In this document: one piece after another, positions 4,902-64,000 of the stretch
Layout of the letters: every line of letters begins with the position of its first letter
Numbering within the stretch: position 1 is the stretch's first letter
Assembly (NCBI GenBank): GCA_965218695.1
Contig: OZ244651.1
Span: forward strand, 384,001 to 448,000
Reading direction: 5' to 3'
Length of the DNA stretch: 64,000 bases
Origin: Nitrosopumilus sp.
Lineage (GTDB): Archaea; Thermoproteota; Nitrososphaeria; Nitrososphaerales; Nitrosopumilaceae
Notes under the pieces: model-generated
Database searches by the model: none
The model's input: the letters and a program-made list of their open reading frames with translations, nothing else
What the model was told of the DNA's origin: nothing
Made by a program: the position numbers and the translations under genes

Positions 4902-5144
4902 ATGGAATATCCGATATCTGTCAACGAAAACGGCCTGAACCTCAAGCCTGAAAAAATGGAACGAGAGAAGCTTTATCACTGCATATTCAAGGACAAGGTA
5001 ATGCTTGTCTTCAAAGATTCTCAAGATGTTCTAAACTGCTATGAAGTAGAGGAAGCCGGACTAGTTGACCGGATCCGGAAATGCAATACCACTGACGAGT
5101 TAGAAAAAATATTTGATGAATATCTTAAACATCAGCAAGAATAA
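4902..5144 (+). CDS. Small hypothetical protein (thaumarchaeal type)
   Basis: Clean ATG ORF of 80 aa in intergenic space with normal composition. Confidence 0.7.
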   Translation: MEYPISVNENGLNLKPEKMEREKLYHCIFKDKVMLVFKDSQDVLNCYEVEEAGLVDRIRKCNTTDELEKIFDEYLKHQQE

Positions 5145-5183
5145 TTATATACAAGCAATGTGGGTATCTAATTATAGTGATGT

Positions 5184-6872
5184 ATGGACTTGAGTGACTC
5201 CAATAATTCCAAAGACGCAGAAGAAATTTTATCGGAATTTGATTCCCGAGATTCAATCCCAGAATCAACTACTGAAAAAAAGACAGAACCAACACCGGCC
5301 CCAACAGCCGAACCCGCTCCAGAACCAACAGCCGAACCCGCTCCAGAACCAACAGCCGAACCCGCTCCAGAACCAACAGCCGAACCCGCTCCAGAACCAA
5401 CAGCCGAACCCGCTCCAGAACCAACAGCCGAACCCGCTCCAGAACCAACAGCCGAACCCGCTCCAGAACCAACAGCCGAACCCGCTCCAGAACCAACAGC
5501 CGAACCCGCTCCAGAACCAACAGCCGAACCCGCTCCAGAACCAACAGCCGAACCCGCTCCAGAACCAACAGCCGAACCCGCTCCAGAACCAACAGCCGAA
5601 CCCGCTCCAGAACCAACAGCCGAACCCGCTCCAGAACCAACACCGGCAGTAGCAGCTGAGTCAACTCCCGAACCAGCCGCCGAACCCGCTCCAGAACCAA
5701 CACCGGCAGTAGCAGCTGAGTCAACTCCCGAACCAGCCGCCGAACCCGCTCCAGAACCAACACCGGCAGTAGCAGCTGAGTCAACTCCCGAACCAGCCGC
5801 CGAACCCGCTCCAGAACCAACACCGGCAGTAGCAGCTGAGTCAACTCCCGAACCAGCCGCCGAACCCGCTCCAGAACCAACACCGGCAGTAGCAGCTGAG
5901 TCAACTCCCGAACCAGCCGCCGAACCCGCTCCAGAACCAACACCGGCAGTAGCAGCTGAGTCAACTCCCGAACCAGCCGCCGAACCCGCTCCAGAACCAA
6001 CACCGGCCCCAACAGCCGAACCCGCTCCAGAACCAACACCGGCAGTAGCAGCTGAGTCAACTCCCGAACCAGCCGCCGAACCCGCTCCAGAACCAACACC
6101 GGCAGTAGCAGCTGAGTCAACTCCCGAACCAGCCGCCGAACCCGCTCCAGAACCAACACCGGCCCCAACAGCCGAACCCGCTCCAGAACCAACACCGGCA
6201 GTAGCAGCTGAGTCAACTCCCGAACCAGCCGCCGAACCCGCTCCAGAACCAACACCGGCCCCAACAGCCGAACCCGCTCCAGAACCAACACCGGCAGTAG
6301 CAGCTGAGTCAACTCCCGAACCAGCCGCCGAACCCGCTCCAGAACCAACACCGGCAGTAGCAGCTGAGTCAACTCCCGAACCAGCCGCCGAACCCGCTCC
6401 AGAACCAACACCGGCCCCAACAGCCGAACCCGCTCCAGAACCAACACCGGCAGTAGCAGCTGAGTCAACTCCCGAACCAGCCGCCGAACCCGCTCCAGAA
6501 CCAACACCGGCCCCAACAGCCGAGCCAGCAGTTCCGCCCACCGCAGAATCACAATCCGATTCAACTACGAGTGAAACTTCGGATTCATCTAAAACATCTG
6601 AAAGGCGTGATGTGATTTTTGTGGGCGCAAAACCAATAATGACTTATGTGTCTGCAACCTTGACACAACTTTCCACCAGATCTATGGTAACCATCAAGGC
6701 TCGAGGCAAAAAAATTACACATGCAGTTGATGTGTCCCAAATGATCGTCAAGAGAATGAATTCAGTTGGATACATCATCAAAGATGTGCGAATCGCATCC
6801 GACTCTCTTAAATCCCAAGATGGAAAACTGCGTAACGTATCCACCATGGAAATTGACATATCAAAAGGGTAA
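5184..6872 (+). CDS. Alba-domain nucleic-acid-binding protein with very long Pro/Glu/Ala/Thr repeat N-terminus
   Basis: C-terminal IFVGAKPIMTYV...IKARGKKITHAVDV...RNVSTMEI is the Alba fold. Confidence 0.85.
   Translation: MDLSDSNNSKDAEEILSEFDSRDSIPESTTEKKTEPTPAPTAEPAPEPTAEPAPEPTAEPAPEPTAEPAPEPTAEPAPEPTAEPAPEPTAEPAPEPTAEPAPEPTAEPAPEPTAEPAPEPTAEPAPEPTAEPAPEPTAEPAPEPTAEPAPEPTPAVAAESTPEPAAEPAPEPTPAVAAESTPEPAAEPAPEPTPAVAAESTPEPAAEPAPEPTPAVAAESTPEPAAEPAPEPTPAVAAESTPEPAAEPAPEPTPAVAAESTPEPAAEPAPEPTPAPTAEPAPEPTPAVAAESTPEPAAEPAPEPTPAVAAESTPEPAAEPAPEPTPAPTAEPAPEPTPAVAAESTPEPAAEPAPEPTPAPTAEPAPEPTPAVAAESTPEPAAEPAPEPTPAVAAESTPEPAAEPAPEPTPAPTAEPAPEPTPAVAAESTPEPAAEPAPEPTPAPTAEPAVPPTAESQSDSTTSETSDSSKTSERRDVIFVGAKPIMTYVSATLTQLSTRSMVTIKARGKKITHAVDVSQMIVKRMNSVGYIIKDVRIASDSLKSQDGKLRNVSTMEIDISKG
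5286..6523 (+). repeat. Coding tandem repeat array: 14 x 24 bp (5301-5636), 6 x 60 bp (5637-5996), then mixed 36/60-bp units
   Basis: Units such as CCAACAGCCGAACCCGCTCCAGAA appear nucleotide-identical. Confidence 0.95.
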
Positions 6873-7092: not shown

Positions 7093-7405
7093 TACAGGAC
7101 ATATGTCAAAAACGTTATTCCAAGGAGAGCGGCATATTCTCAAGTAGTTAATTGACAAATTTTCAGATAAAATATGGTAGGAAAGGCTCCGGTGGATTTC
7201 GGTGATCAAGCCATTAGATCATATGAGTAATCGACCACTTTCAACATAACAAAAATACGCCGCAATAGATCCTATGATTAACCCCCCATCACATCGATAA
7301 ATTTAGATCAGGCACGATCGCGTTTCACATCAAATGCCAGACTCACCTGATCAGATCATACGCAAGTTAGAACAGGAAAACAAAAAGCTAAAAAAGATTC
7401 TAAAT

Positions 7406-7498
7406 CAGAAAGACAAAAAGCTGGAGCAGAAAGACAAAAAGCTGGAGCAGAAAGACAAAAAGCTGGAGCAGAAAGACAAAAAGCTGGAGCAGAAAGAC
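7406..7498 (+). repeat. 21-bp tandem repeat x4.4 (QKDKKLE heptad) in the transposase N-terminus
   Basis: CAGAAAGACAAAAAGCTGGAG repeated. Confidence 0.95.
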
Positions 7499-8376
7499 GA
7501 GGAGCTGAGCCTTGAGCGCAGCCTGTGGAAGCGCAGGGACGGCGCGTTGAGCAAGGATGCCGGCAAGAGTGAAATGCTGCACCGGATCGAGGTTTTTGAC
7601 GAAATAATCGGCAGCAAGACCAAGATTTACCGGGCCACGCTAAAAGACAAGGAAAAGTTCCAGTTCATGCTGGCGTATGCCAAGGAATACATGAAGCATT
7701 CTGGCCGGATGCCGCTGTTTCGCGACGACGACTCCAGAAGGTCCGATCCCGGAAACCGGTGCAAGCTGCACCTGAGGCACGCCCTGCTCATGGCGCTGAT
7801 GCACAAAAAGGACAACATCACCCAGGGCGTGCTTGGCGCAGTCTTCGGGATAGACCAGGCCGCCGTGTCGCGGTACCTCAAGGTGATCGACGCGATGCTG
7901 GAAGGGACGCTTCCCACGGCAGACAGCGTGTCAGGGGAGATATCTGCAGCCCCCACCAAGGAAGAGTTCAAGAAGATCGTGCCCGGGCCCGACGGGGGCG
8001 AGATATTCGCAGACGGCACGCACTGCCCCGTGCAGCGCCCGTCCGAAAGGACGGTCAGGCGCATGAAATACTCTGGCAAGAAAAAAAAGTTCACCATCTA
8101 TGTTAACCCTCCCCCGGACTTATCCAGTTTTTGCAACCAGCTTGTCACTTTGGGTATGTTTTTTGCCTTCTTAAGCATTACCTGCAAGCAGAATCCTGCC
8201 CGACCGGCAGAAAATACGGCTTTTTGCCCCGCGGTGTGACACGCATAATCCCTTCCGGGGGGTCTGGGGGGCTGGCCCCCCAGCATTCATGTAGAAACAT
8301 CCCATAGTTCCCATAATTTGTGCACAGCATCCGCTAGACTCGGCATTGCCTACTGGCACCACCACCGGTTCCACAC

Positions 8377-9495
8377 CTACTCGTCCTTCATGACTTGTCT
8401 GATCTTGGAGCGATACAGCTTTTCGTTTCTGTCCTCGTACAGGGTGTCTTCTGTCAGCATGTGCCAGATGATAGTCAGCATCTTGTTTGCCACGTGCGTT
8501 ATGGCGACGTGGTGCTTGTGCCTCTTCATGATGCGCGTGTAGTATTCCTTCACCCTTGCGTCATGGAGCACTGCAGCAAGCGCGCACTGGACCATGATCC
8601 AGTTGACCTTCCTGTTTGAGTCCTTTTTCATCCTGCCGTGGTATGACGTGTCGCCTGACTGGTGAAGCGTCGGGCACATGCCGGCCCAGGACACGAACTT
8701 TTTTGGGTTCCCAAACCGTTTGATGTCGTCGATCTCTGCTGCCAGCAACGCTGCAGAAAATACGTTCATCCCAGTCATGCTCAGCAGCAGCTTCGGGTAG
8801 TGGGTGTCGCGGACGTATCCCTTGATCTCGACTTCGGTCTTTTTTATCTCGTCGTTGCAGTGCCGTATCTGCGATATGCAGCCGTCCAGCACGAACCTGT
8901 CCCGAGAATTCTTCATGTCTGCCTCTTCAAGATACTTTAGGGCCTTTCCCCTCCAGATGTGGCGTCCTCCATCCTTTGGATTTATGTCGCATTTGTCTGT
9001 CAGCGTGTGCACAAAGTTGATCACTTTTGTCCGGTCCTGCACCAGGGTTATCTGGTACCTGAGGATCTGCTTCATTCCCCTGGATTCGGCCGAGCCTATG
9101 TGGCAGCTCGAAATCAAGTCGGCTCGCAGCAGGTGGGCAAGCATCCTTGCGTCTATGGTGTCGTTTTTTATGCTGGCCGACGAGATTGCCTTGATCTTGA
9201 ACGGATTGGCAAGCATCAGCGGGATTCCGGCAGATTCAAATGCATCAGCAGTCTTTATCCAGTGGTTTCCTGTGGATTCGCAGACTGCCCTGCACTGACC
9301 GTATGTGGCCTTTGCGTATGCGGCAAACTCTGATGAATCCCGGGACGTGTTGCTGTACGATGACTCTTCCAGGATTGTCCCTTCATGGCTCATCACGCAC
9401 GTCACGCATTTTCTCTTTCCTATGTCGATTCCAATACTCTTTTCTATTTCTTTCACCTCCTTTTTTTTGTGTGGCAGGCCGGAAGCTGCATCCAT
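8377..9495 (-). CDS. IS110-family DEDD recombinase; true start possibly ATA at 9447
   Basis: IGIDIGK, ESTGNHW, KNDTIDA, LHQSG, ANKMLTIIWHML; SD GGAGGTGA at 9460-9453. Confidence 0.95.
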   Translation of the reverse strand: MDAASGLPHKKKEVKEIEKSIGIDIGKRKCVTCVMSHEGTILEESSYSNTSRDSSEFAAYAKATYGQCRAVCESTGNHWIKTADAFESAGIPLMLANPFKIKAISSASIKNDTIDARMLAHLLRADLISSCHIGSAESRGMKQILRYQITLVQDRTKVINFVHTLTDKCDINPKDGGRHIWRGKALKYLEEADMKNSRDRFVLDGCISQIRHCNDEIKKTEVEIKGYVRDTHYPKLLLSMTGMNVFSAALLAAEIDDIKRFGNPKKFVSWAGMCPTLHQSGDTSYHGRMKKDSNRKVNWIMVQCALAAVLHDARVKEYYTRIMKRHKHHVAITHVANKMLTIIWHMLTEDTLYEDRNEKLYRSKIRQVMKDE

Positions 9496-9595
9496 CTATC
9501 AGGGCTCGAAGCCCAGTAACACAGCAGCTCGGATCGCCCCATTCAACAACTAGGTCTTTGTGACCAGGTGAATTTAGGGGTCAGCCCGCCACAGG
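9470..9595 (-). ncRNA. Predicted bridge RNA (target- and donor-binding loops) of IS110 #1
   Basis: Closing stem 9470-9479/9584-9593. Loop 1 holds plus-strand CAACAAC (9544-9550) and GGTGAA (9567-9572), matching target TTCAC-CA-ACAAC. Loop 2 holds CATCTAT (9493-9499) and AACACA (9518-9523), matching donor junction TGTATT-CA-TCTAT. Confidence 0.85.
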
Positions 9596-9597
9596 TA

Positions 9598-10851
9598 TAC
9601 CAAAAGTGAAAAGTTGATGCGATTGTCACATATTTTACCACATCTAAAGTTATACCAATTTCACGTCCCACAGTCAATGAAGATCAAGACGATGTTGAAA
9701 AGATACGCCGCTGAGACAGACTGCGATACCAAGGACCGCATGATGCTGATCATCAGAGTCAAACGTGATGGAATAACCATGAGGGATTCTGCAAAATCCC
9801 TGGGAAAGTCAGCCTCGTGGGGCTACAAGTGGCACGAGCGCTACCTGGAAGTCGGATTTGACAGGCTGGGAAACATGCCGCGCTCCGGCAGGCCGACCAA
9901 GGCGAGCAAGGCAGACATGAAGAAGATCAGAAAGGCCGCATGCAGGAAACCTGTCTGGACTGGCATGGAGATGCAGCAATACATCCAACAGAAGACCGGA
10001 GTGAAGTACGAACTCGGATATGTGCGCCAGATACTGCGCGGGTGGGGCTATTCCCAAAAGGTTCCCGTAGGAAAACATGCAAGAAGGGCGCCTGACGAGG
10101 AGATCAGGAAATTCCAAAAAGAGATGCCAGAGCTTATAAAAAAAAGAACAGTGAAGGAACAGTCGTAGCGATACAGGACGAGTCCATAGTAATCTCCGAT
10201 GCGCGGCCGCGAAGACGCGGCTACACCAGGAAGGGAATACGGGCGTTTTTCACGTACACCGGCTCACACTCCAAGACGATAATCCATGGACTAATCACCA
10301 CGGACGGCAGGGGCATGTTCCGGCAGTACGATGCGTTTACCAAGGACACCTTTGAGGACTTTCTAAGGCAGGCGATGTACAGGTTCAAGAAGATCTGCCT
10401 GATCATGGACAAGGCCTCCCAGCACAGGGCATCAAACATACGCAAACTGCTTGATGGCACAGACGGCCTGGAGATAATCTTCCTGCCAACTGCGACCCCG
10501 GACCTGAGCGCCATAGAGACGTACTGGAGGGATCTCAAACGGGCAGTGCTTGACGTGCCGTACACCAGCCTGAGCATGCTCCGCGAGGCGATCACCAGGT
10601 ACGCGAGGTACAAAAAACCAAATCTGGTAGTCGAGAATTTTCTGTACAGGGCCATCTAGAACGACATCAAACCACACCGGATCCACGCCGCCTAGCGTGT
10701 GCCATGCACGGCGCATCAGAGCATGCAATGTCTAATGTTCGGGGCGTCTTTTCTCGTCATTTGGGAATTCAACGCACCTCGTAATTTCCAGAGATGGATG
10801 TCGCATCAAAAATTTATGAGCGATTTTGATATGAATTTTTCATTGCTGGTA
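9598..10851 (+). mobile_element. IS630-family element (type C, 1254 bp) inserted in the IS110 left end
   Basis: TIRs TACCAAAAGTGAAAAGTT / AATTTTTCATTGCTGGTA; TA TSD 9596-9597 and 10852-10853; apparently identical copy at 61586-62839. Confidence 0.95.
9677..10659 (+). CDS. IS630 transposase in two frames joined by a probable programmed -1 frameshift
   Basis: orfA (HTH, RSGRP) and -1 frame (IQDES, MDKASQH, PDLSAIETYW) overlap at A8G 10138-10146; same in the second copy. Confidence 0.85.
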
Positions 10852-11771
10852 TAGTGGGTGGGTGGGGTTATCATGTATTCAACAACACCAACGTGTACGC
10901 CAACAAAAACGGGGTGATAATCGGCATATCCAAGAGCACCGTCGGGTCAGTCGGCGACATCACGCTTCTCAAGGAACGCCCCATGCCGTTTGGAAGATGG
11001 GAGGAGGCGATGCACGACCCGGATCTGCCCGAGGCACAACGGTGCCACGTCTTTGTCGACCGCGGCTACCAGGGGATCGAAAAACACCTGCCCGGCACGA
11101 CCCCGGAGATCCCGTACAAGAAGAGCAAGAAGGCGCCCCTGACGCCGGAGCAAAGGGAGCACAACCACAGGATCCACTCCGAGCGCGTGCTAGTCGAGCA
11201 CACCATAGGCAGGCTCAAGCGCTACGCGCGTCTTTCCGACCCGTACGACGGAACCGCGGCGCAGTTCAACCGGGAGTTCAACGTGATCACAGGGCTGGTG
11301 AACCTGGACCTTTTGTGGGACTACGTGCAAAAGGGCCCGCCGCCACCGGGCCGGTGGAGGATGCAGGTAGACTGGGACAAAGCCTGCTCCCGGGAACCTG
11401 TCAAGTAGAATTCAGGGCACATCGAGGTGCTACAGGACTGCGCACGCCATCTTGGATTTTGTAATAAATTAATTCGCCACGCACTCGGCATAGTTGGCAT
11501 TTAGTCGTATTTTTCTGATTTTATGGCCCAAACCGGCAAGATGGGAGGGATTACTCATGAGTTCTATTAGAATTTACCAGAATCGAAGCCATCCGGGCGC
11601 GCGTCGGCCTCTCGCTCCATGGCACGATGCACGGGCGCTGGTTATTAATTGACATTTAATCAGATTTAAAATACCGATCAGCTACTTTTGTAGATTAAAT
11701 CATTCGGAAAGATCATCGGACCGCATAATGACGGATTGTCTGTTCTATTCGAGAGTATTTTGTATCAGACT

Positions 11772-14595: not shown

Positions 14596-16079
14596 AGAAG
14601 ATATGCGTAATCCGGAACTTTTTCAAACTCCGCGCTGACATGTTAGCCCTGCTGTCAAAAATTTATGATCCATCCAATTAAAACCAGAATATGCCGGTTC
14701 ATACTGTTGTCGAATCAGGAAACAAGTGACCTGCAAAAAGAGAACAAGACTCTCAGAGACATGATCAAGCGCCAGGACGCAGCTGCCAGGCACGAGCAAA
14801 GCCTGTGGGGTACGCGAGACGGCTCCGAGTCTGGAGCCGCAGGGGAGCCCGCCCTGCTGCATCGCGTGGAGGTCTTTGATGAGATCATCAGAGTCGAGAA
14901 AAATCTTCATGACGCGACGCTGAAGTGCAGGGAACAGTTCCAATACATGCTTGACAGGGCCGAGGCATGGATAAGGCAAAGCGGCAAATCCCCGCTCTTC
15001 AGGAACGACGAGACGAGGGCGTCGGATCCCGGGAACCGCTGCAAGCTGTACCCAAGGCACGCGCTGCTCATGGCGCTGATGTACAAAAAGGGCAACCCCA
15101 CGCAGGGCGCGCTTGCGGCATTCTTTGGAATAGACCAGGCAACCGTGTCCCGGTATATCGATGTGCTAGACGGGGTGCTTGAGGCGGCGCTGCCCACTGC
15201 TGCCAACATATCAAAGGAGATAGCAGGCACGGAGACAAAAGAGGATCTCAAAAAAATAATTTCCGGGCCGGACGGGGGCATCATGATGATCGACGGCACG
15301 CACTGCCCCATACAGAGGCCGGACGAAAAACAGATGAGGAGCATGATGTATTCTGGCAAGAAGAAGAAATTCACGCTCAACACCACCGTGTGCATAAACG
15401 AAAACGGGGTGATAGTCGCCATATCCGGCAGCACCGTGGGATCCGTCCACGACATCACGCTGCTCAGGGAGAGCCCGCTGCCATTTGGAAAATGGTGGGA
15501 CCGCATGTGCGACGAGAACACCCCCGAAGAGGACAGGATCCACACCCTTACTGACCGCGGCTACAAGGGAATCGCAAAGGATCTGCCCGGAACAAACACC
15601 CTGCAGCCGCACAAGAAGACCAAAAACCACAAGCGCTTTACAAAGGAGGAAAAGGAGCACAACCACGCCATCAACTCGGCCAGGGTAAAGGTAGAGCACT
15701 CCATCGGCAGGCTGAAGCGGTACGGCCGGCTTACCGCGCCATACAAGGGAAAGATTGGCGACTTTAACAGGGAATTTAACATAATAACCGGACTCGTAAA
15801 CCTGGACCTCCTGTGGAACCAGATGAAGAAAGGACCTCCTTCAGGTAGCACGCTGGGGCCGGTAATAAACTGGGAAGAGGCAAACGTCCCCGGCAGCGCC
15901 GTTTCAAACAATTAATTCCGTGCACATCGTGGTGCTGCAAGGTTGCGCACGTTATTTTGTATTTCTGGCAGGACAGGATCCCCACATGGCTAACATGGCG
16001 ATAATTAAATTAGAATTTTTAATATTTTCTGGTTTTTCTGGTTTAACCCAACGAAATGGAGGGATTACGCATGGCTTCT
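14596..16079 (+). mobile_element. IS5-family (ISL2/Harbinger-like) element, intact
   Basis: TIRs AGAAGATATGCGTAATCC / GGATTACGCATGGCTTCT; 3-bp TSD AAT (14593-14595, 16080-16082). Confidence 0.9.
14665..15915 (+). CDS. ISL2-like DDE transposase
   Basis: HTH (FFGIDQATVSRY), IDGTHCPIQRP, YSGKKK, GSVHD, TDRGYKG, RVKVEHSIGRLK. Confidence 0.92.
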   Translation: MIHPIKTRICRFILLSNQETSDLQKENKTLRDMIKRQDAAARHEQSLWGTRDGSESGAAGEPALLHRVEVFDEIIRVEKNLHDATLKCREQFQYMLDRAEAWIRQSGKSPLFRNDETRASDPGNRCKLYPRHALLMALMYKKGNPTQGALAAFFGIDQATVSRYIDVLDGVLEAALPTAANISKEIAGTETKEDLKKIISGPDGGIMMIDGTHCPIQRPDEKQMRSMMYSGKKKKFTLNTTVCINENGVIVAISGSTVGSVHDITLLRESPLPFGKWWDRMCDENTPEEDRIHTLTDRGYKGIAKDLPGTNTLQPHKKTKNHKRFTKEEKEHNHAINSARVKVEHSIGRLKRYGRLTAPYKGKIGDFNREFNIITGLVNLDLLWNQMKKGPPSGSTLGPVINWEEANVPGSAVSNN

Positions 16080-51461: not shown

Positions 51462-53522
<2,061 letters not shown>

Positions 53523-54827: not shown

Positions 54828-54890
54828 AACTACTCGTCTGTTGGTGCATTTCAATCAAATAAAATCGTACATCTGCGCCCCGGACCTCGA

Positions 54891-55034
54891 TGCCTGTCTG
54901 CCTGCCTGCCTGTCTGCCTGCCTGTCTGCCTGCCTGCCTGTCTGCCTGCCTGTCTGCCTGTCTGCCTGTCTGCCTGCCTGTCTGCCTGTCTGCCTGCCTG
55001 CCTGTCTGCCTGCCTGTCTGCCTGCCTGCCTGCC
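54891..55034. repeat. Intergenic tetranucleotide microsatellite (TGCC/TGTC) x36
   Basis: 144 bp of TGYC units between divergent genes. Confidence 0.97.
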
Positions 55035-55124
55035 GCACCCGGCGGTGCAGCGCATGCCTGGGGCACGCACCCGGCTACATGCTGCATGCGTAGCAAATAT
55101 TATTCGGTCTGTCATACCGATACC

Positions 55125-59140: not shown

Positions 59141-59951
59141 CCCTCCTGCGATCCCATGTCGCTTTCTACTGCATCGCGAGCAGTTTAAGGGCATTCTGAA
59201 TCACATGGTATGGCTTGCGGCTTTCAGTTTTTTCAGGTATCCTGCCGTGTCGATGTCACTTCTGCACTCCAGATCTCCACGGAAATAATTGCGTATCGCC
59301 CTGTCCATCAGTTCCGACGCCCCCTCTATGGACTCGTGCGTGGCGCAGAACACCACGGCTCCATTTGGTGATGATGCTGTTTGGACTGCAAAGTGGAAGA
59401 ACATAAAACAGGAAATCCGGATCAAGATTTGCCTGTACAACCGCATGATGCGCGCATCACAGGAGCCAATCGCAATGACGTGAGGCAAAGATGCATCTTG
59501 CCATACTGTCTTGATCATGAAGGTGGAACTGTAGGGAGGTTGTGCAACTCCCATGTGTTACGGGTATCCAAACCCGTTGATGTCATGTGTTGGCAATACG
59601 TCTGATCCAGTCCGATTTGGGTTGGTCGGGCTGTTTTTTAAAGATTTGTGGGCAGGTTCGACGTAAATCGGATATTTTGATCATTATTGCCCCCGATCCT
59701 GCAGAATCCGATGCAAATGTCATGGCTCGTGTGCAGGTACAGGCAGGCGTTGCGCGCGGATTTGGATGAATGGCACACAGCTACCGCTAGGAATCTCTCC
59801 GTATCCGGAGGAAAAGCAGGCCAAACTCCTACAGTCAATATCGTTTTCGGCAAGCCGGAGGGGGACAAGAGGGGGCGTTGAGCCGCCCCTCATCTGTGCA
59901 GGGGCGGCAAAACGCACCCGGGGTTGTTTAATCTCCCCATGGCGCCCAGAC

Positions 59952-61070
59952 TCAGGATTCGGCGATGCGCTTTATTCTCTGGAATTTTCGTCTGACAAAA
60001 TCCCTGTCCTGGGTCCTGTACTCGGCGTCGTGTTCAAGCATCTCCCAGACCCATTCGAGCATCTGCCTGGCCACGGCAACCCTTGCCTTCATGGGCCCTA
60101 TGCGGGCTGCCAGTCTCTGGTAGCGTGCCCCTATCCGGGCATCGTGCCGGACTGCGACGAAGGCGGCCTCGACCATGGCGCGGCGCAGCCAGACAGAACC
60201 GCGCTTTGTGATGCCACCGGTCCTGACTGTCTCCCCGCTGTTGCGGTGTTTTGGCGCCAGGCCTGCATACGAGACCAGCTTTTCGGCGTTGGCGAACCTC
60301 TTGTGGTCGACTATTTCGGCAAGTATGGTTACTGCCGTGACGTATCCTATTCCGGGTATGGTCATGATCAGTCGTGCCCGCCTGTCGCTCATCGCAATCC
60401 CGGCTATCTTTTTTTCAAATTTTGACACCTGCTTTAGTATGGTGTCGATGATGGCTAGGTGCGACTGCACCGCCATGCAGTCAACCTCCCTCAGGGGCAC
60501 GTCCTGCAGCCACTCGATGCCCTGCTCCGTAAACAGCCCCCCTTTGGGCTGCTCGTGCGGGTATTTGGCCAGGATCGCGTGGATGCGGTTCTTGGGGCCT
60601 GAGGCGGACATCTTCATGTCCAGGCGGGTGCGGGTCAGTTCGCGCAGATCCCGCGCGGGCTTGTCGGCCACGAACGATTCGGGGATCATGTCCAGCCTGC
60701 ACAGGTCTGCCAGCTTTTCCGAGTCGGCCTTGTCGTTTTTGTACACGGTTTCGGTTATTATCTTCGTGTTGTGCGGGTGGGCCAGCAGGGTGTCGATGCC
60801 CGCATCCTCGAGCATGTCGTGCACGACTATCCAGTAGTTGGCCGTGGATTCGCAGACGGCCGTGGCCGGCACGTACCCTTCCTTGTGGATCATCTTGATG
60901 AATCCGGTTATTCCCCGAACGTTGTTGTCAAATTCAGTCTGCTTTAGTATGTCCTTGGTACTTCCCTTGATCGTTGTAACGCATTTCTTTTTGTGAACGT
61001 CTATTCCAACGTAATACGTGTTATCACCTCCTTTGCAGTGTATCGGACCCGACCAGCGGAAAACTCCCAT
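59952..61070 (-). CDS. IS110-family DEDD recombinase; true start possibly ACG at 61019
   Basis: VGIDVHK, ESTANYW, KNDKADS, IPGIG, RNSG, VAVARQML; SD GGAGGTGA at 61031-61024. Confidence 0.95.
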   Translation of the reverse strand: MGVFRWSGPIHCKGGDNTYYVGIDVHKKKCVTTIKGSTKDILKQTEFDNNVRGITGFIKMIHKEGYVPATAVCESTANYWIVVHDMLEDAGIDTLLAHPHNTKIITETVYKNDKADSEKLADLCRLDMIPESFVADKPARDLRELTRTRLDMKMSASGPKNRIHAILAKYPHEQPKGGLFTEQGIEWLQDVPLREVDCMAVQSHLAIIDTILKQVSKFEKKIAGIAMSDRRARLIMTIPGIGYVTAVTILAEIVDHKRFANAEKLVSYAGLAPKHRNSGETVRTGGITKRGSVWLRRAMVEAAFVAVRHDARIGARYQRLAARIGPMKARVAVARQMLEWVWEMLEHDAEYRTQDRDFVRRKFQRIKRIAES

Positions 61071-61210
61071 TCACCGTCAAAGCGGTATTTGACCATCCGC
61101 ATACCTTGAGTCACTCTAACTAACGCCCTCATACGTGGCAAGTTGCACTCGACTCTCAGGTCCAACAGGGTAAATGCCATGATCGCCGCTATAACGGCAA
61201 CACATGGCGT
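61045..61210 (-). ncRNA. Predicted bridge RNA of IS110 #2
   Basis: Closing stem GGACC/GGTCC (61045/61163). Target loop with CTAACTA (61116-61122) and AGTTGCAC (61141-61148) matches site GTGCAA-CT-AACTA. Donor loop with CTCCCAT (61064-61070) matches core plus right end. Confidence 0.8.
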
Positions 61211-61585
61211 CTAACTACGTTCGCCACTACACGCTATGAAACAAATGATGCCCGAACCGGCCATGAGTTTCCTACAAGACAGTCCAAAAATGAGGGCTAA
61301 GATTCATAGCTAAAACCACATTTTTGGACAAGTTTTTAGGAAAGTCGCGTTTTGTTTTGGCGTCGTCGGATTCATTGCATGTAGTGCAACATGGCAGGAC
61401 TTAAACCCCTATGGGCAACAACGTGCCGCCTACCTGTCAAACATGGCTAACGTATACCAAAAGTGAAAAGTTGATGCGATTGTCACATATTTTACCACAT
61501 CTAAAGTTATACCAATTTCACGTCCCACAGTCAATGAAGATCAAGACGATGTTGAAAAGATACGCCGCTGAGACAGACTGCGATA

Positions 61586-62839
61586 TACCAAAAGTGAAAA
61601 GTTGATGCGATTGTCACATATTTTACCACATCTAAAGTTATACCAATTTCACGTCCCACAGTCAATGAAGATCAAGACGATGTTGAAAAGATACGCCGCT
61701 GAGACAGACTGCGATACCAAGGACCGCATGATGCTGATCATCAGAGTCAAACGTGATGGAATAACCATGAGGGATTCTGCAAAATCCCTGGGAAAGTCAG
61801 CCTCGTGGGGCTACAAGTGGCACGAGCGCTACCTGGAAGTCGGATTTGACAGGCTGGGAAACATGCCGCGCTCCGGCAGGCCGACCAAGGCGAGCAAGGC
61901 AGACATGAAGAAGATCAGAAAGGCCGCATGCAGGAAACCTGTCTGGACTGGCATGGAGATGCAGCAATACATCCAACAGAAGACCGGAGTGAAGTACGAA
62001 CTCGGATATGTGCGCCAGATACTGCGCGGGTGGGGCTATTCCCAAAAGGTTCCCGTAGGAAAACATGCAAGAAGGGCGCCTGACGAGGAGATCAGGAAAT
62101 TCCAAAAAGAGATGCCAGAGCTTATAAAAAAAAGAACAGTGAAGGAACAGTCGTAGCGATACAGGACGAGTCCATAGTAATCTCCGATGCGCGGCCGCGA
62201 AGACGCGGCTACACCAGGAAGGGAATACGGGCGTTTTTCACGTACACCGGCTCACACTCCAAGACGATAATCCATGGACTAATCACCACGGACGGCAGGG
62301 GCATGTTCCGGCAGTACGATGCGTTTACCAAGGACACCTTTGAGGACTTTCTAAGGCAGGCGATGTACAGGTTCAAGAAGATCTGCCTGATCATGGACAA
62401 GGCCTCCCAGCACAGGGCATCAAACATACGCAAACTGCTTGATGGCACAGACGGCCTGGAGATAATCTTCCTGCCAACTGCGACCCCGGACCTGAGCGCC
62501 ATAGAGACGTACTGGAGGGATCTCAAACGGGCAGTGCTTGACGTGCCGTACACCAGCCTGAGCATGCTCCGCGAGGCGATCACCAGGTACGCGAGGTACA
62601 AAAAACCAAATCTGGTAGTCGAGAATTTTCTGTACAGGGCCATCTAGAACGACATCAAACCACACCGGATCCACGCCGCCTAGCGTGTGCCATGCACGGC
62701 GCATCAGAGCATGCAATGTCTAATGTTCGGGGCGTCTTTTCTCGTCATTTGGGAATTCAACGCACCTCGTAATTTCCAGAGATGGATGTCGCATCAAAAA
62801 TTTATGAGCGATTTTGATATGAATTTTTCATTGCTGGTA
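61586..62839 (+). mobile_element. IS630 type C full copy (1254 bp)
   Basis: Apparently identical to 9598-10851; TA TSD 61584-61585 and 62840-62841. Confidence 0.95.
61665..62647 (+). CDS. IS630 transposase, -1 frameshift at A8G 62126-62134
   Basis: Same two ORFs as 9677-10659. Confidence 0.85.
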
Positions 62840-62853
62840 TACCAAGGACCGCA

Positions 62854-64000
62854 CCTATGTTAACCACCCCGGAGCATTTACCACGATAATCCCGCTATAT
62901 TTCCGGTCTGTGCCTGAGTTGCACGGTACATCATTTATAGCTGACGCTGGGCAGCATGATCAGGATGCAGGATCCGCCAGGTTCACTTCTGGCGCGCCCT
63001 TTTCATCTTGGCCAGCTTGCGTCTGTACAGTCTTTCGTTGTGTGACGAGTATATCGTCCTGGTATTGAGCATGTGCCATGCTATGGTGAGCATCTTGTTT
63101 GCCACCACCACTACGGCAGGCCCGTGCTTGTCTGCATGTCTCCTGCGTGCAGACTCGTATACTGCCGCCATCCTGTCATCATGCCGCACCGCGGTGTTTG
63201 CAGCCTCCATCATGGCCCAGTTGACAATTTTGTTGCGGTCAATCTTTTTTATCCTTCCAGTATACAGCTGGTTGCCGGACTGGTAGACTACGGGACACAT
63301 GCCTGCCCACGAGACCAGGTTTTTCGGGCTCTCAAACCTGGAGATATCCCCTATCTCTGCTGCAAGCAGCAGTGCGGTGTATGTTCCCAGACCGGTCAGG
63401 CTTGCAAGAATCTCTGCGTCCTCGTTTTGTGCCGCCTCCCTGTCAAGGCATTCGTCCATGACTGCTATCTCCTCGGTCAGGTTTCTCATCTGCCGGACGC
63501 ATTGCTGGAGCACCATCTCGTCATGTGCAGAGCCGAGGCCTGCGGATTCCAGCTGTTCTGTTGCCTTTGCAGAATACATATCAGTGGCCTCCACTGCCAC
63601 GTCATACCTGTCAAGCAGGGCGTGGACGCGGTTTATCACGCGCGTCCTGTCTTGGACGATCCTTATCCTCTGCCTGACCATCTGCCTTATCCCCCTGATG
63701 TTGGCAGGCGGCACGTAGCACTCGGGTATCATGTCCATCCTCAACACCTGTGCAATCTTCTCTGCATCCACCCTGTCTGTCTTTTTTCCTGTCTTTGTAA
63801 TTATGGCCATCTTGAACGTGTTGGCAAGCTTGATCTCTATTCCTGCACCCTCAAATGCGGCATATGTGATGTTCCACATGTTGCCCGTAGTCTCGCATGC
63901 CGCGCGGCATCCCCTGCGGGCGTACCTGCGTGCGGCCTTTTCTGCAAACTCCTTTGCGCTTGCTGCCGTGTTTGGGTACTGCCCTCGTTGGAGGACCTTC
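62854..64000 (-). mobile_element. IS110/IS1111-family element #3 (partial; left end outside the window)
   Basis: Right end CA-CCT-ATGTTAACC mirrors CA-TCT-ATGTTAACC of element #1. Confidence 0.88.
62983..64000 (-). CDS. IS110-family recombinase (N-terminus outside the window)
   Basis: ETTGNMW, KKTDRVDA, SWAGMCPVVYQSG, VANKMLTIAWHML. Confidence 0.93.
   Translation of the reverse strand, partial: KVLQRGQYPNTAASAKEFAEKAARRYARRGCRAACETTGNMWNITYAAFEGAGIEIKLANTFKMAIITKTGKKTDRVDAEKIAQVLRMDMIPECYVPPANIRGIRQMVRQRIRIVQDRTRVINRVHALLDRYDVAVEATDMYSAKATEQLESAGLGSAHDEMVLQQCVRQMRNLTEEIAVMDECLDREAAQNEDAEILASLTGLGTYTALLLAAEIGDISRFESPKNLVSWAGMCPVVYQSGNQLYTGRIKKIDRNKIVNWAMMEAANTAVRHDDRMAAVYESARRRHADKHGPAVVVVANKMLTIAWHMLNTRTIYSSHNERLYRRKLAKMKRARQK

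Follow-up and report, generated by a model that had tools for sequence, protein, structure and literature searches.

Insertion sequences (IS) of the IS110 family are characterized by a DEDD recombinase, a 2-bp core without a long target duplication, and an element-encoded non-coding RNA with loops that match target and donor. Durrant et al. (2024) distinguish an IS110 group, whose long left ends carry the RNA, from the IS1111 group, in which the right ends and the repeats are long. For more than 350 ISfinder entries, section 6 of Siddiquee et al. (2024; PMC11187229) counts 186 with a non-coding region (NCR) downstream of the gene, 123 with an upstream one, 26 with two long ones, and 17 without any. 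The same section notes that a few true IS1111 members are arranged differently: the NCR is upstream in ISMtsp17, and in the "more diverged" ISHvo10 and ISAcp5 large NCRs flank the gene. A full-text literature search for these three names found only that paper and its preprint, and a literature search on upstream bridge RNAs in archaeal IS110/IS1111 elements found nothing more specific. Here we describe three such elements, E1, E2, and E3, in 64,000 nucleotides of the genome of Nitrosopumilus sp. (GenBank assembly GCA_965218695.1, contig OZ244651.1, positions 384,001 to 448,000 of the forward strand; this whole stretch is called the window). All three are on the minus strand, and coordinates are those of the window unless they carry the prefix C1, which marks genome coordinates.

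It is highly probable that E1, E2, and E3 are RNA-guided IS110-family elements, in a branch that is mainly archaeal and has ISHvo10 as its closest named member. They have IS1111-like repeats, guide polarity, and recombinase kinship, but the RNA is upstream of the recombinase gene. Each element encodes a DEDD recombinase, and directly in front of this gene is the predicted bridge (seek) RNA, about 120 nt in length, with two internal loops beyond a closing stem. On its 5' side the target loop is antisense to the core and right flank, and on its 3' side it corresponds to the left flank and core followed by the initial bases of the element. The donor loop corresponds on its 3' side to the right-end terminus and core, and on its 5' side it could pair with the start of the left end. 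In the proposed mechanism an excised circle, with its ends abutted, and a matching target would be held together by the RNA, and strand exchange by the recombinase would take place at the 2-bp core (in recombinase orientation TG in E1 and E3, AG in E2). The crossover point would have been moved so that the RNA comes to lie upstream of the recombinase gene. Expression, circle formation, and catalysis are presumed in this scheme.

The three elements share subterminal inverted repeats of 10-13 bp and a duplicated 2-bp core. In recombinase orientation they start with core-N5-CATG and finish with CAT-N3-core, with the repeats set inward from the ends. The sequence-only reading that preceded this analysis reported core-NNN-ATG ends for all three elements and CAT-N5-core ends for the two complete ones, and these motifs were read correctly. 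On the plus strand E1 has CA-TCT-ATG at 8095-8102 and CAT-GTATT-CA at 10872-10881, E2 has CT-CCC-ATG at 59548-59555 and CAT-GGCGT-CT at 61203-61212, and E3 has CA-CCT-ATG at 62852-62859, its opposite end being beyond the window. The repeats of E1, GGGGTTATCATG (10864-10875) and ATGTTAACCC (8100-8109), match over 10 bp with one mismatch; the right one reads GGGTTAACAT in recombinase orientation and is 3 nt from the core. The left-end terminus of E1 is a 28-bp segment (10854-10881) made up of core TG, AATA, and the subterminal repeat CATGATAACCCC (10864-10875). E2 has repeats of 12 bp with two mismatches, CGGCAACACATG (61195-61206) and ATGTGTTACGGG (59553-59564), and that of E3 is 11 bp or more.

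The limits of E1 follow from two paralogous target sites of this genome that carry no insertion, each found as two halves that overlap by 2 bp (C1:1020778-1020814/1020813-1020853 and C1:2369336-2369372/2369371-2369411). Because the flanks match these empty sites with a 2-bp overlap, the insertion is 8097-10881 with CA at both junctions, and the right-end copy of the core is at 8095-8096. The host of E1 is an IS5-like transposase gene, now in two pieces (7334-8095 and 10882-11408), and an intact paralogue 7 kb away (14665-15915, 72% identical) aligns on either side of the interruption. The host gene also contains a 21-nt tandem repeat encoding KDKKLEQ (7406-7510). E2 proper is 59550-61210, or 59548-61212 including both copies of its core (CT on the plus strand, 59548-49 and 61211-12), and was delimited with the help of its domains and of two further copies in the genome. 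It consists of the downstream NCR (59550-59951), the recombinase gene (59952-61070), and the upstream NCR with the bridge RNA (61071-61210). Its upstream end had been placed next to an IS630 copy at 61452 and is corrected here to 61210/61212. E3 occupies 62852-64000 in the window, with core CA at 62852-53, the right end at 62854, and a downstream NCR of 129 nt (62854-62982). Its recombinase gene runs past the window, and the element ends at C1:448255, equivalent to window position 64255. E3 is inserted in an IS630 copy. Since the E1-family members, E2, and E3 are all in repeated or mobile DNA, they seem to target other mobile elements.

Guide sequences upstream of the recombinase gene vary with the flanking DNA, in agreement with the earlier placement of a guide RNA there. 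The genome contains nine two-ended copies of the E1 family, 78-100% identical, as well as truncated ones. The nine copies occupy four target types, GGTGTTGT-TG-GTGAACT, GAGGTTGG-TG-CGTAATT, TAGCC(T/C)GT-TG-CATAATT, and ATTTTTGG-TG-ATCTGGC, and both guides differ accordingly. At about position 51-59 of the element the copies have AAATTCACC, AATTACGCA, (G/A)ATTATGCA, and ATCAGATCA, which are reverse complements of the core and right flank. The window copy of E1 carries this right-target guide, AAATTCACC, at 9567-9575 on the 5' side of the target loop, and in sister copies the guides AATTACGCA, AATTATGCA, and CAGATCA face the flanks TGCGTAATT, TGCATAATT, and TGATCTG. At about position 75-85 are AGTTGT-TG-AAT, GGTTGT-TG-AAT, T(T/C)CTGT-TG-AAT, and GTTTAG-TG-AAT, which give, in sense orientation, the left flank and the core followed by the three bases with which the element begins. 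In E1 the left-target guide is AGTTGTTGAAT at 9541-9551, on the 3' side of the target loop. Left-end-only fragments also match exactly, with AGTTCG-TG-AAT for the flank AAAGTTCG and TCTGT-TG-AA for TAGTCTGT.

The second loop is taken to be the donor loop because its 3' side matches the right ends. The left-donor guide of E1, ATAGATG (9493-9499), is the right-end terminus plus core in sense orientation, and it covaries with the end: ATAGATG accompanies CATAGA|TG in E1, and ATAGGTG accompanies CATAGG|TG in E3 and several relatives. E1 has TGTGTTACT (9515-9523) and E3 has TGTATAATT on the 5' side of this loop. This segment is a putative right-donor guide, and in E1 its TGTGTT can pair with AATACA of the left end with one G-T wobble. 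E2 has a right-target guide GTGCAACT (61141-61148), which is the reverse complement of AGTTGCAC, a left-target guide TAGTTAGA (61115-61122), which matches the left flank and core AG, and a left-donor guide ATGGGAG (61064-61070). The same guide plan, with different sequences, is found in E3 and in relatives from other genomes.

The association between guides and flanks was quantified with an anchored cognate test, in which the flank of each element was ranked among swapped flanks; it was used in place of an unanchored 8-mer flank test, which was too noisy. The starting set was 62 loci, made up of 55 relatives from other genomes and seven copies from this one, and repeats were called in 38, of which 10 were then dropped. 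Seven E1-family copies (B, C, E, F, G, I, and J), one relative (L021), and E2 were added by hand, and two duplicate flanks were removed, giving 35 elements. The upstream left guide had a mean rank fraction of 0.11, with 19 of the 35 elements in the top 5% and 34 better than the median. The upstream right guide had a mean of 0.29 (12 in the top 5%, 28 better than the median). For the downstream region the corresponding values were 0.46 for a left guide (1 and 20) and 0.54 for a right guide (3 and 13). The downstream values are at chance level, and the contrast between the regions is plain.

The upstream region has a covariation-supported fold. The consensus from 19 upstream regions of the E1/E3-like part of the clade has 25 pairs, of which 16 show compensatory changes. 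Paired cells make up 98.1%, compared with 86.3% in shuffles (none of 500 shuffles was as high), and when partners are slid by 1-3 columns only 27-47% of cells pair. In E1 the predicted bridge RNA is at 9473-9590. Its closing stem is followed by a CCCC/GGGG stem leading to the target loop, with a small hairpin between its two sides, and then by a GCUGC/GCAGC stem leading to the second loop, which has its own hairpin. On the evidence of sequence and covariation, E1-E3 would thus encode a non-coding RNA with target- and donor-matching loops, as expected of the IS110 family.

The recombinases also place the elements in this family. Both Pfam domains score above the curated cut-offs in all three proteins, and the motif G-[LM]-x-P-x4-S-G is present, as in the IS1111 group. 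The E1 gene (8377-9459) encodes 360 amino acids from a GTG at 9459, with matches to PF01548 (3.4e-24) and PF02371 (1.4e-22). Its open reading frame (ORF) extends back to an ATG at 9495 (8377-9495), which is out of frame in sister copies. The recombinases of the window elements are 360-372 amino acids long and those of relatives mostly 352-360. E1 is 45% identical to E3 and 30% identical to E2. There is distant homology to IS621 (chain 8wt6_A, E-value 8.8e-13). A Klebsiella plasmid element that has the canonical IS1111 layout, with 12-bp repeats and some 75 nt on the left and 270 nt on the right, aligns with E1 over the full length at 21% identity. In a tree of 21 proteins, E1 and E3 belong to a thaumarchaeal clade with support of 99/99, while E2, three haloarchaeal proteins, and a Neorhizobium protein form a comb beside it. 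A canonical-layout clade (the Klebsiella element, IS884, and ISShdy1) and the ISEc45/ISSso6 pair are on long branches. By E-value, the best plasmid-borne matches to the E1 recombinase are haloarchaeal (1e-47 to 9e-49). The suggestion that E1-E3 form a distinct archaeal subgroup holds in that the lineage is mainly archaeal, with a well-supported thaumarchaeal clade and haloarchaeal plasmid matches, but the Neorhizobium element beside it keeps it from being strictly so.

A haloarchaeal relative led to ISHvo10, a gene annotated as "IS110-like element ISHvo10 family transposase" on plasmid pHV4 of Haloferax volcanii DS2. One copy was compared. It has a perfect 14-bp repeat (ATGGAAATTCTGCT/AGCAGAATTTCCAT), about 228 nt upstream and 225 nt downstream of the gene, and the right end CCATAGG|TG. 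Upstream of the gene are GTGCTGACT, equal to the left flank, and CATAGGTGA, equal to the right end plus core; 5' of these are a hairpin and a 7/9 match to the reverse complement of the right flank. Two other haloarchaeal relatives share this plan. ISHvo10 thus resembles E1-E3 in its ATG/CAT subterminal repeats, its core TG, its right end CATAGG|TG, its upstream left-target and left-donor guides, the hairpin between the two target guides, and the long NCRs on both sides. It differs in having a shorter recombinase (332 amino acids compared with 360-372) with about 30% identity (29% to E1, E-value 2e-45, and 32% to E2, 5e-50, in full-length alignments). E1-E3 can informally be called ISHvo10-like, with such repeats, a guide-bearing upstream NCR, a substantial downstream NCR, and recombinases nearest to ISHvo10 among named elements. 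Given ISHvo10 and the listing in PMC11187229, they are therefore further members of a catalogued variant rather than a new layout. The sequence-only reading had proposed a distinct archaeal subgroup unless a described clade already showed the layout and the downstream region lacked both conservation and transcription. A described element with this layout does exist, yet the downstream NCR of E1 is conserved. What is new here is modest: three element families in an ammonia-oxidizing archaeon, the explicit guides of this branch and a fold for it that covariation supports, natural retargeting inside a single genome, and long downstream regions that carry no guides.

The layout had also been described as a hybrid of IS110 and IS1111 features, with a guide order and core strand opposite to those of IS621. 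That description is half right. The subterminal repeats, the upstream guide RNA, the right-target guide in first position, and the antisense core are all real, and the layout stands well above chance. The reversal relative to IS621 is true in recombinase orientation, but it is the norm for IS1111 elements in sections 9 and 12 of PMC11187229, so that guide order is not a hybrid trait. According to those sections, the top-strand match is 5' of the bottom-strand match in IS1111-type seekRNAs, and the order is reversed in the IS110-type ISEc21. The order in E1-E3 would then be that of IS1111, assuming the same strand convention. On the opposite DNA strand, the 5' guide corresponds to the left flank with core CA or CT in sense orientation and the 3' guide is antisense to the core and right flank. 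This is the IS621 plan, and the reversed order and antisense core are therefore, as inferred from the sequences, one property and not two, which amounts to an inversion of the RNA and recombinase genes with respect to crossover polarity.

Like the IS1111 elements described in PMC11187229 (ISEc11, ISKpn4, and ISPa11), E1-E3 have subterminal repeats within the range of 7-17 bp, the same apparent guide order, a DEDD recombinase with the motif given above, and site-specific insertion, often into mobile elements. They differ in that the guide RNA is upstream, while that paper puts the seekRNA and the longer NCR downstream, although it lists exceptions itself. Their recombinases are longer than the 330-350 amino acids stated there, and the canonical-layout clade is distant in the tree. 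Like IS621 and the IS110 group (Durrant et al. 2024; Hiraizumi et al. 2024), E1-E3 have the RNA upstream of the recombinase gene, two internal loops in the order target and donor, a hairpin between the guides of each loop, and a core within the guides, and the extra bases past the core in the left guide resemble handshake guides. However, the guide order within each loop is opposite in recombinase orientation, and CA or CT is the core only on the antisense strand. In addition, IS110 in the strict sense has repeats that are absent or of 2-3 bp and a short right end, while E1-E3 have repeats of 10-13 bp and right ends of 129-402 nt.

Several observations weigh against this interpretation. The bridge RNA is a prediction from comparative data, and none of the 23 listed sequencing runs is on record as an RNA run. 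The right-donor guide is the weakest of the four, with five or six pairs to the left end and none to the core. The right-target guide of the window copy of E1 fits its flank less well than those of sister copies, having CC for the expected CA and one more mismatch. One copy of E2 (copy c, C1:1720105-1721763) has a left flank that matches its left-target guide (GCATAAGAC) and a right flank, AGGATCTTGTT, that mismatches the right-target guide, for which AGTTCGTGT was predicted; this suggests a later rearrangement beside the right end. The counts of the cognate test overstate independence, because the elements are kin and several are copies within one genome, and no repeat was called in 24 of the 62 starting loci, while another 10 were set aside, five because they were judged spurious and five because their cores were unequal. 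The tree does not separate E2, ISHvo10, and the bacterial element from the thaumarchaeal clade (support 37/67). It shows kinship with ISHvo10 rather than formal group membership, because its six-locus reference set includes no IS1111, IS110, or IS621 sequence. Finally, the equivalence to the IS1111 guide order presumes that "top strand" in PMC11187229 is the recombinase-sense strand.

Two alternatives concern the nature of the elements as a whole. The interval 8095-10881 could be a single composite or novel element of 2.8 kb rather than a 1.5-kb element with an insertion, since the duplicated core bounds all of it inside the disrupted IS5-like gene. It contains, however, an IS630-like element of 1256 bp on the plus strand (9598-10853), with HTH_32, HTH_33, and DDE_3 domains and its own TA duplication (9596-97 and 10852-53), which has 11 full-length copies in the genome at 98% identity or more. 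This insert splits the left end of E1 28 bp from the terminus and 7 nt upstream of the closing stem; the bridge RNA of the window copy is intact. A copy of E1 at C1:2048000-2050750 is 100% identical and lacks the IS630-like element at that position, and E1 proper is therefore about 1.53 kb. The composite reading has next to no chance of being correct, and we regard it as already refuted. Contigs of four public runs compared with 7600-11400 contain the joints 8094>10880 (two runs) and 9595>10852 (three runs). Excision as their source was considered and is not shown, as both forms occur as paralogous copies. It is also very improbable that E1-E3 are canonical IS1111-type elements with a seekRNA in the long downstream region and chance matches upstream. 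The repeats and the long downstream regions of E1 and E2 do resemble those of IS1111, and the right end is where Durrant et al. locate the bridge RNAs of IS1111. But the cognate signal is absent downstream, most relatives have only 47-135 nt there, 16 pairs of the upstream fold show compensatory changes, and the downstream region of E1 is nearly constant among copies with four different targets, which largely refutes this alternative. The RNA-guided, ISHvo10-like interpretation is the one retained below.

The downstream regions of E1 and E2 are unusual within the clade. As the sequence-only reading reported, both are long and contain G-rich hairpins. That of E1, its right end, is 280 nt (8097-8376) and that of E2 is 402 nt. 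Among the 28 relatives in which the repeat call is trusted, the downstream region measures 47-135 nt and the upstream region 166-298 nt, so the lengths in E1 and E2 are lineage-specific exceptions. The E2 relative L083, with the same CATGGG|AG end, has only 55 nt downstream. In E1 roughly the last 105 nt (8097-8201) share homology with relatives' entire right end (in five of eight comparisons no more than 7 of 500 shuffles scored as well), while the first 175 nt or so past the stop codon (8202-8376) occur in the E1 family alone. Downstream identity among E1 copies is 78-98%, and in divergent pairs it is 78-88% compared with 62-77% at third codon positions. Conservation is close to or above the coding average, and only the first 45 nt or so past the stop codon are variable. 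The region is under purifying selection.

The hairpin of E1 (8264-8283) is CTGGGGGG-CNNG-CCCCCCAG, followed by a second C6 run in RNA sense (a G-run at 8257-8262 on the plus strand), and that of E2 is at 59869-59891. A consensus fold of the E1 downstream region from five barely varying sequences has 61 pairs, 5 with compensatory change, and a covariation term of +0.08; because the stem is invariant in the five aligned sequences, covariation is silent on the hairpin. Several explanations for the extra sequence were tried and rejected. Duplication of the right end as the origin of the 175 nt is not supported (51-477 of 500 shuffles were as high in the eight comparisons with relatives, and 411 of 500 against its own terminal part). 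A second, degenerate bridge RNA, sought by comparing the left and right regions of E1 on either strand, gave 10-244 of 300 shuffles as high, the best case (10) being a gappy alignment on the antisense strand of copy E. A module common to E1 and E2, based on a TAGCGG..GCTGTG motif, had 58 of 200 shuffles as high, and the two regions are unrelated. A small ORF at 8098-8286 is broken by indels between copies. An Rfam scan of 8000-11000 at E-values up to 1 gave only a chance match to RsmY (16.5 bits against a gathering score of 57). This genome has no solo copies of either downstream region outside the elements. A metagenome pattern search for the E1 hairpin region gave no matches, and a metagenome protein scan gave 44 loci, the best only 41-43% identical, with no further E1-type downstream regions.

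A different motif is found in the shorter right ends. AGCT[AT]TAAA, preceded by TAGCG, is 88-90 nt before the right end in all 13 elements with tails of 127-135 nt, including E3, out of 37 elements examined. It resembles what we take to be the archaeal TATA box consensus, facing the end of the element.

According to section 12 of PMC11187229, bacterial relatives assemble a promoter at the circle junction. With some hesitation, the right-end module may be read as an archaeal promoter that would act across the circle junction into the RNA and recombinase genes. A wider and more tentative possibility is that the right end is a complete outward promoter, resembling a B recognition element and TATA box (BRE/TATA), that would be active only after circle formation, with the additions in E1 and E2 serving as structured leaders or small RNAs that tune the junction transcript. 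The TATA-like box counts against these ideas in being present in none of the eight E1-family copies and missing from E2 and from tails of 47-68 nt, so the promoter idea does not explain the extra sequence of E1 and E2. The G/C-rich hairpins and the T-run could instead form the 3' end of the recombinase message, or a terminator or insulator, with no part in recombination, a possibility that is real though doubtful. Both hairpins are 75-95 nt past the stop codon in sense orientation, and a conserved TTTTCTGC follows that of E1. The genome has 64 G5-loop-C5 or C5-loop-G5 hairpins, mostly in two repeat families of about 25 copies (GGGGGCGCGACGCCCCC context) and 15 copies (CCCCCACGGGGG context) that are presumably parts of other insertion sequences. 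Their location inside other repeated elements suggests a general role in the insertion sequences of this host, such as 3'-end formation or insulation. But a terminator accounts for only about 40 nt of a conserved sequence of 175-400 nt, such G/C-rich hairpins are missing from E3 and most relatives, and the invariant stems offer no covariation in its favor. It is unlikely that the additions are passenger modules like the ssr9 small-RNA gene behind the transposase gene of ISPpu9, an IS110-family element treated in PMC12288879. As there, a conserved non-coding segment that is dispensable for target choice follows the gene, and the additions are lineage-specific (the nearest outgroups of E1 have about 127-131 nt) and unrelated to each other. 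However, ssr9 has solo copies and its own circles, while neither E1 nor E2 segments occur alone in this genome. No internal second right end was detected, and the Rfam scan of E1 gave no family match. Overall, the likeliest function of the 175 nt of E1 and most of the 402 nt of E2 is as a 3' hairpin or terminator of the recombinase message or as a leader of the junction transcript.

Other mobile DNA has accumulated in and around these elements. Copies B and C of the E1 family have a 1.2-kb insertion sequence (C1:2048094-2049306 and C1:194236-195448) in the downstream region, at the same palindromic site CTGC(T/A)TGCAGG, though the host copies are only 88% identical. It is an unrelated element with about 30 copies, ends GGGTGTGTCCTAG, a 332-amino-acid ORF, and an 11-bp duplication. 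At C1:2266392-2266644 two E1-family right-end-only fragments of about 100-150 nt each are inverted about 50 nt apart, both abutting TG-TGGATCT, and could be a rearranged remnant or a derivative resembling a miniature inverted-repeat transposable element. A run of eight A (10140-10148; also at 62128-62136) divides the transposase of the IS630-like element in E1 into two ORFs (9614-10168 and 10315-10659). Contigs of three public runs have one base fewer at 10138, and the site could serve programmed frameshifting or be a tract of variable length. The segment 61452-64000 is a pile-up of nested elements. The outer one is an IS630-like copy (61452-61585 and, further on, 62841-62851) into which a second, identical copy (61584-62840) has inserted at TA; E3 (from 62854) interrupts the outer copy again a few bases later, and it resumes at C1:448256. 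Elsewhere the window has, at 5140-6540, 51977-53294, and 54863-55068, long tandem repeats that stay in frame and code for protein segments of Pro/Glu/Ala-rich and collagen-like (GPP-type) composition, as well as a TGCCTG(C/T)C microsatellite of about 200 nt.

The elements do not reveal a new mechanism. If the promoter reading is correct, the right end would play in these archaeal elements the part that the split -35/-10 promoter at the circle junction plays in bacterial IS110 and IS1111 elements. E1-E3 are a well-resolved case of bridge RNAs, with several hundred relatives, natural retargeting over at least four target types in one genome, and strong covariation in a two-loop RNA. They show that the position of the RNA, upstream or downstream, and the order of its guides are separable traits. 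Guide order and core strand follow the kinship of the recombinase, which is IS1111-like, while the crossover point can be on either side of the RNA gene, in support of the published idea that the RNA was "translocated" between ends. The compact archaeal bridge RNAs of about 120 nt, with their natural guide variants, are material for testing such systems.

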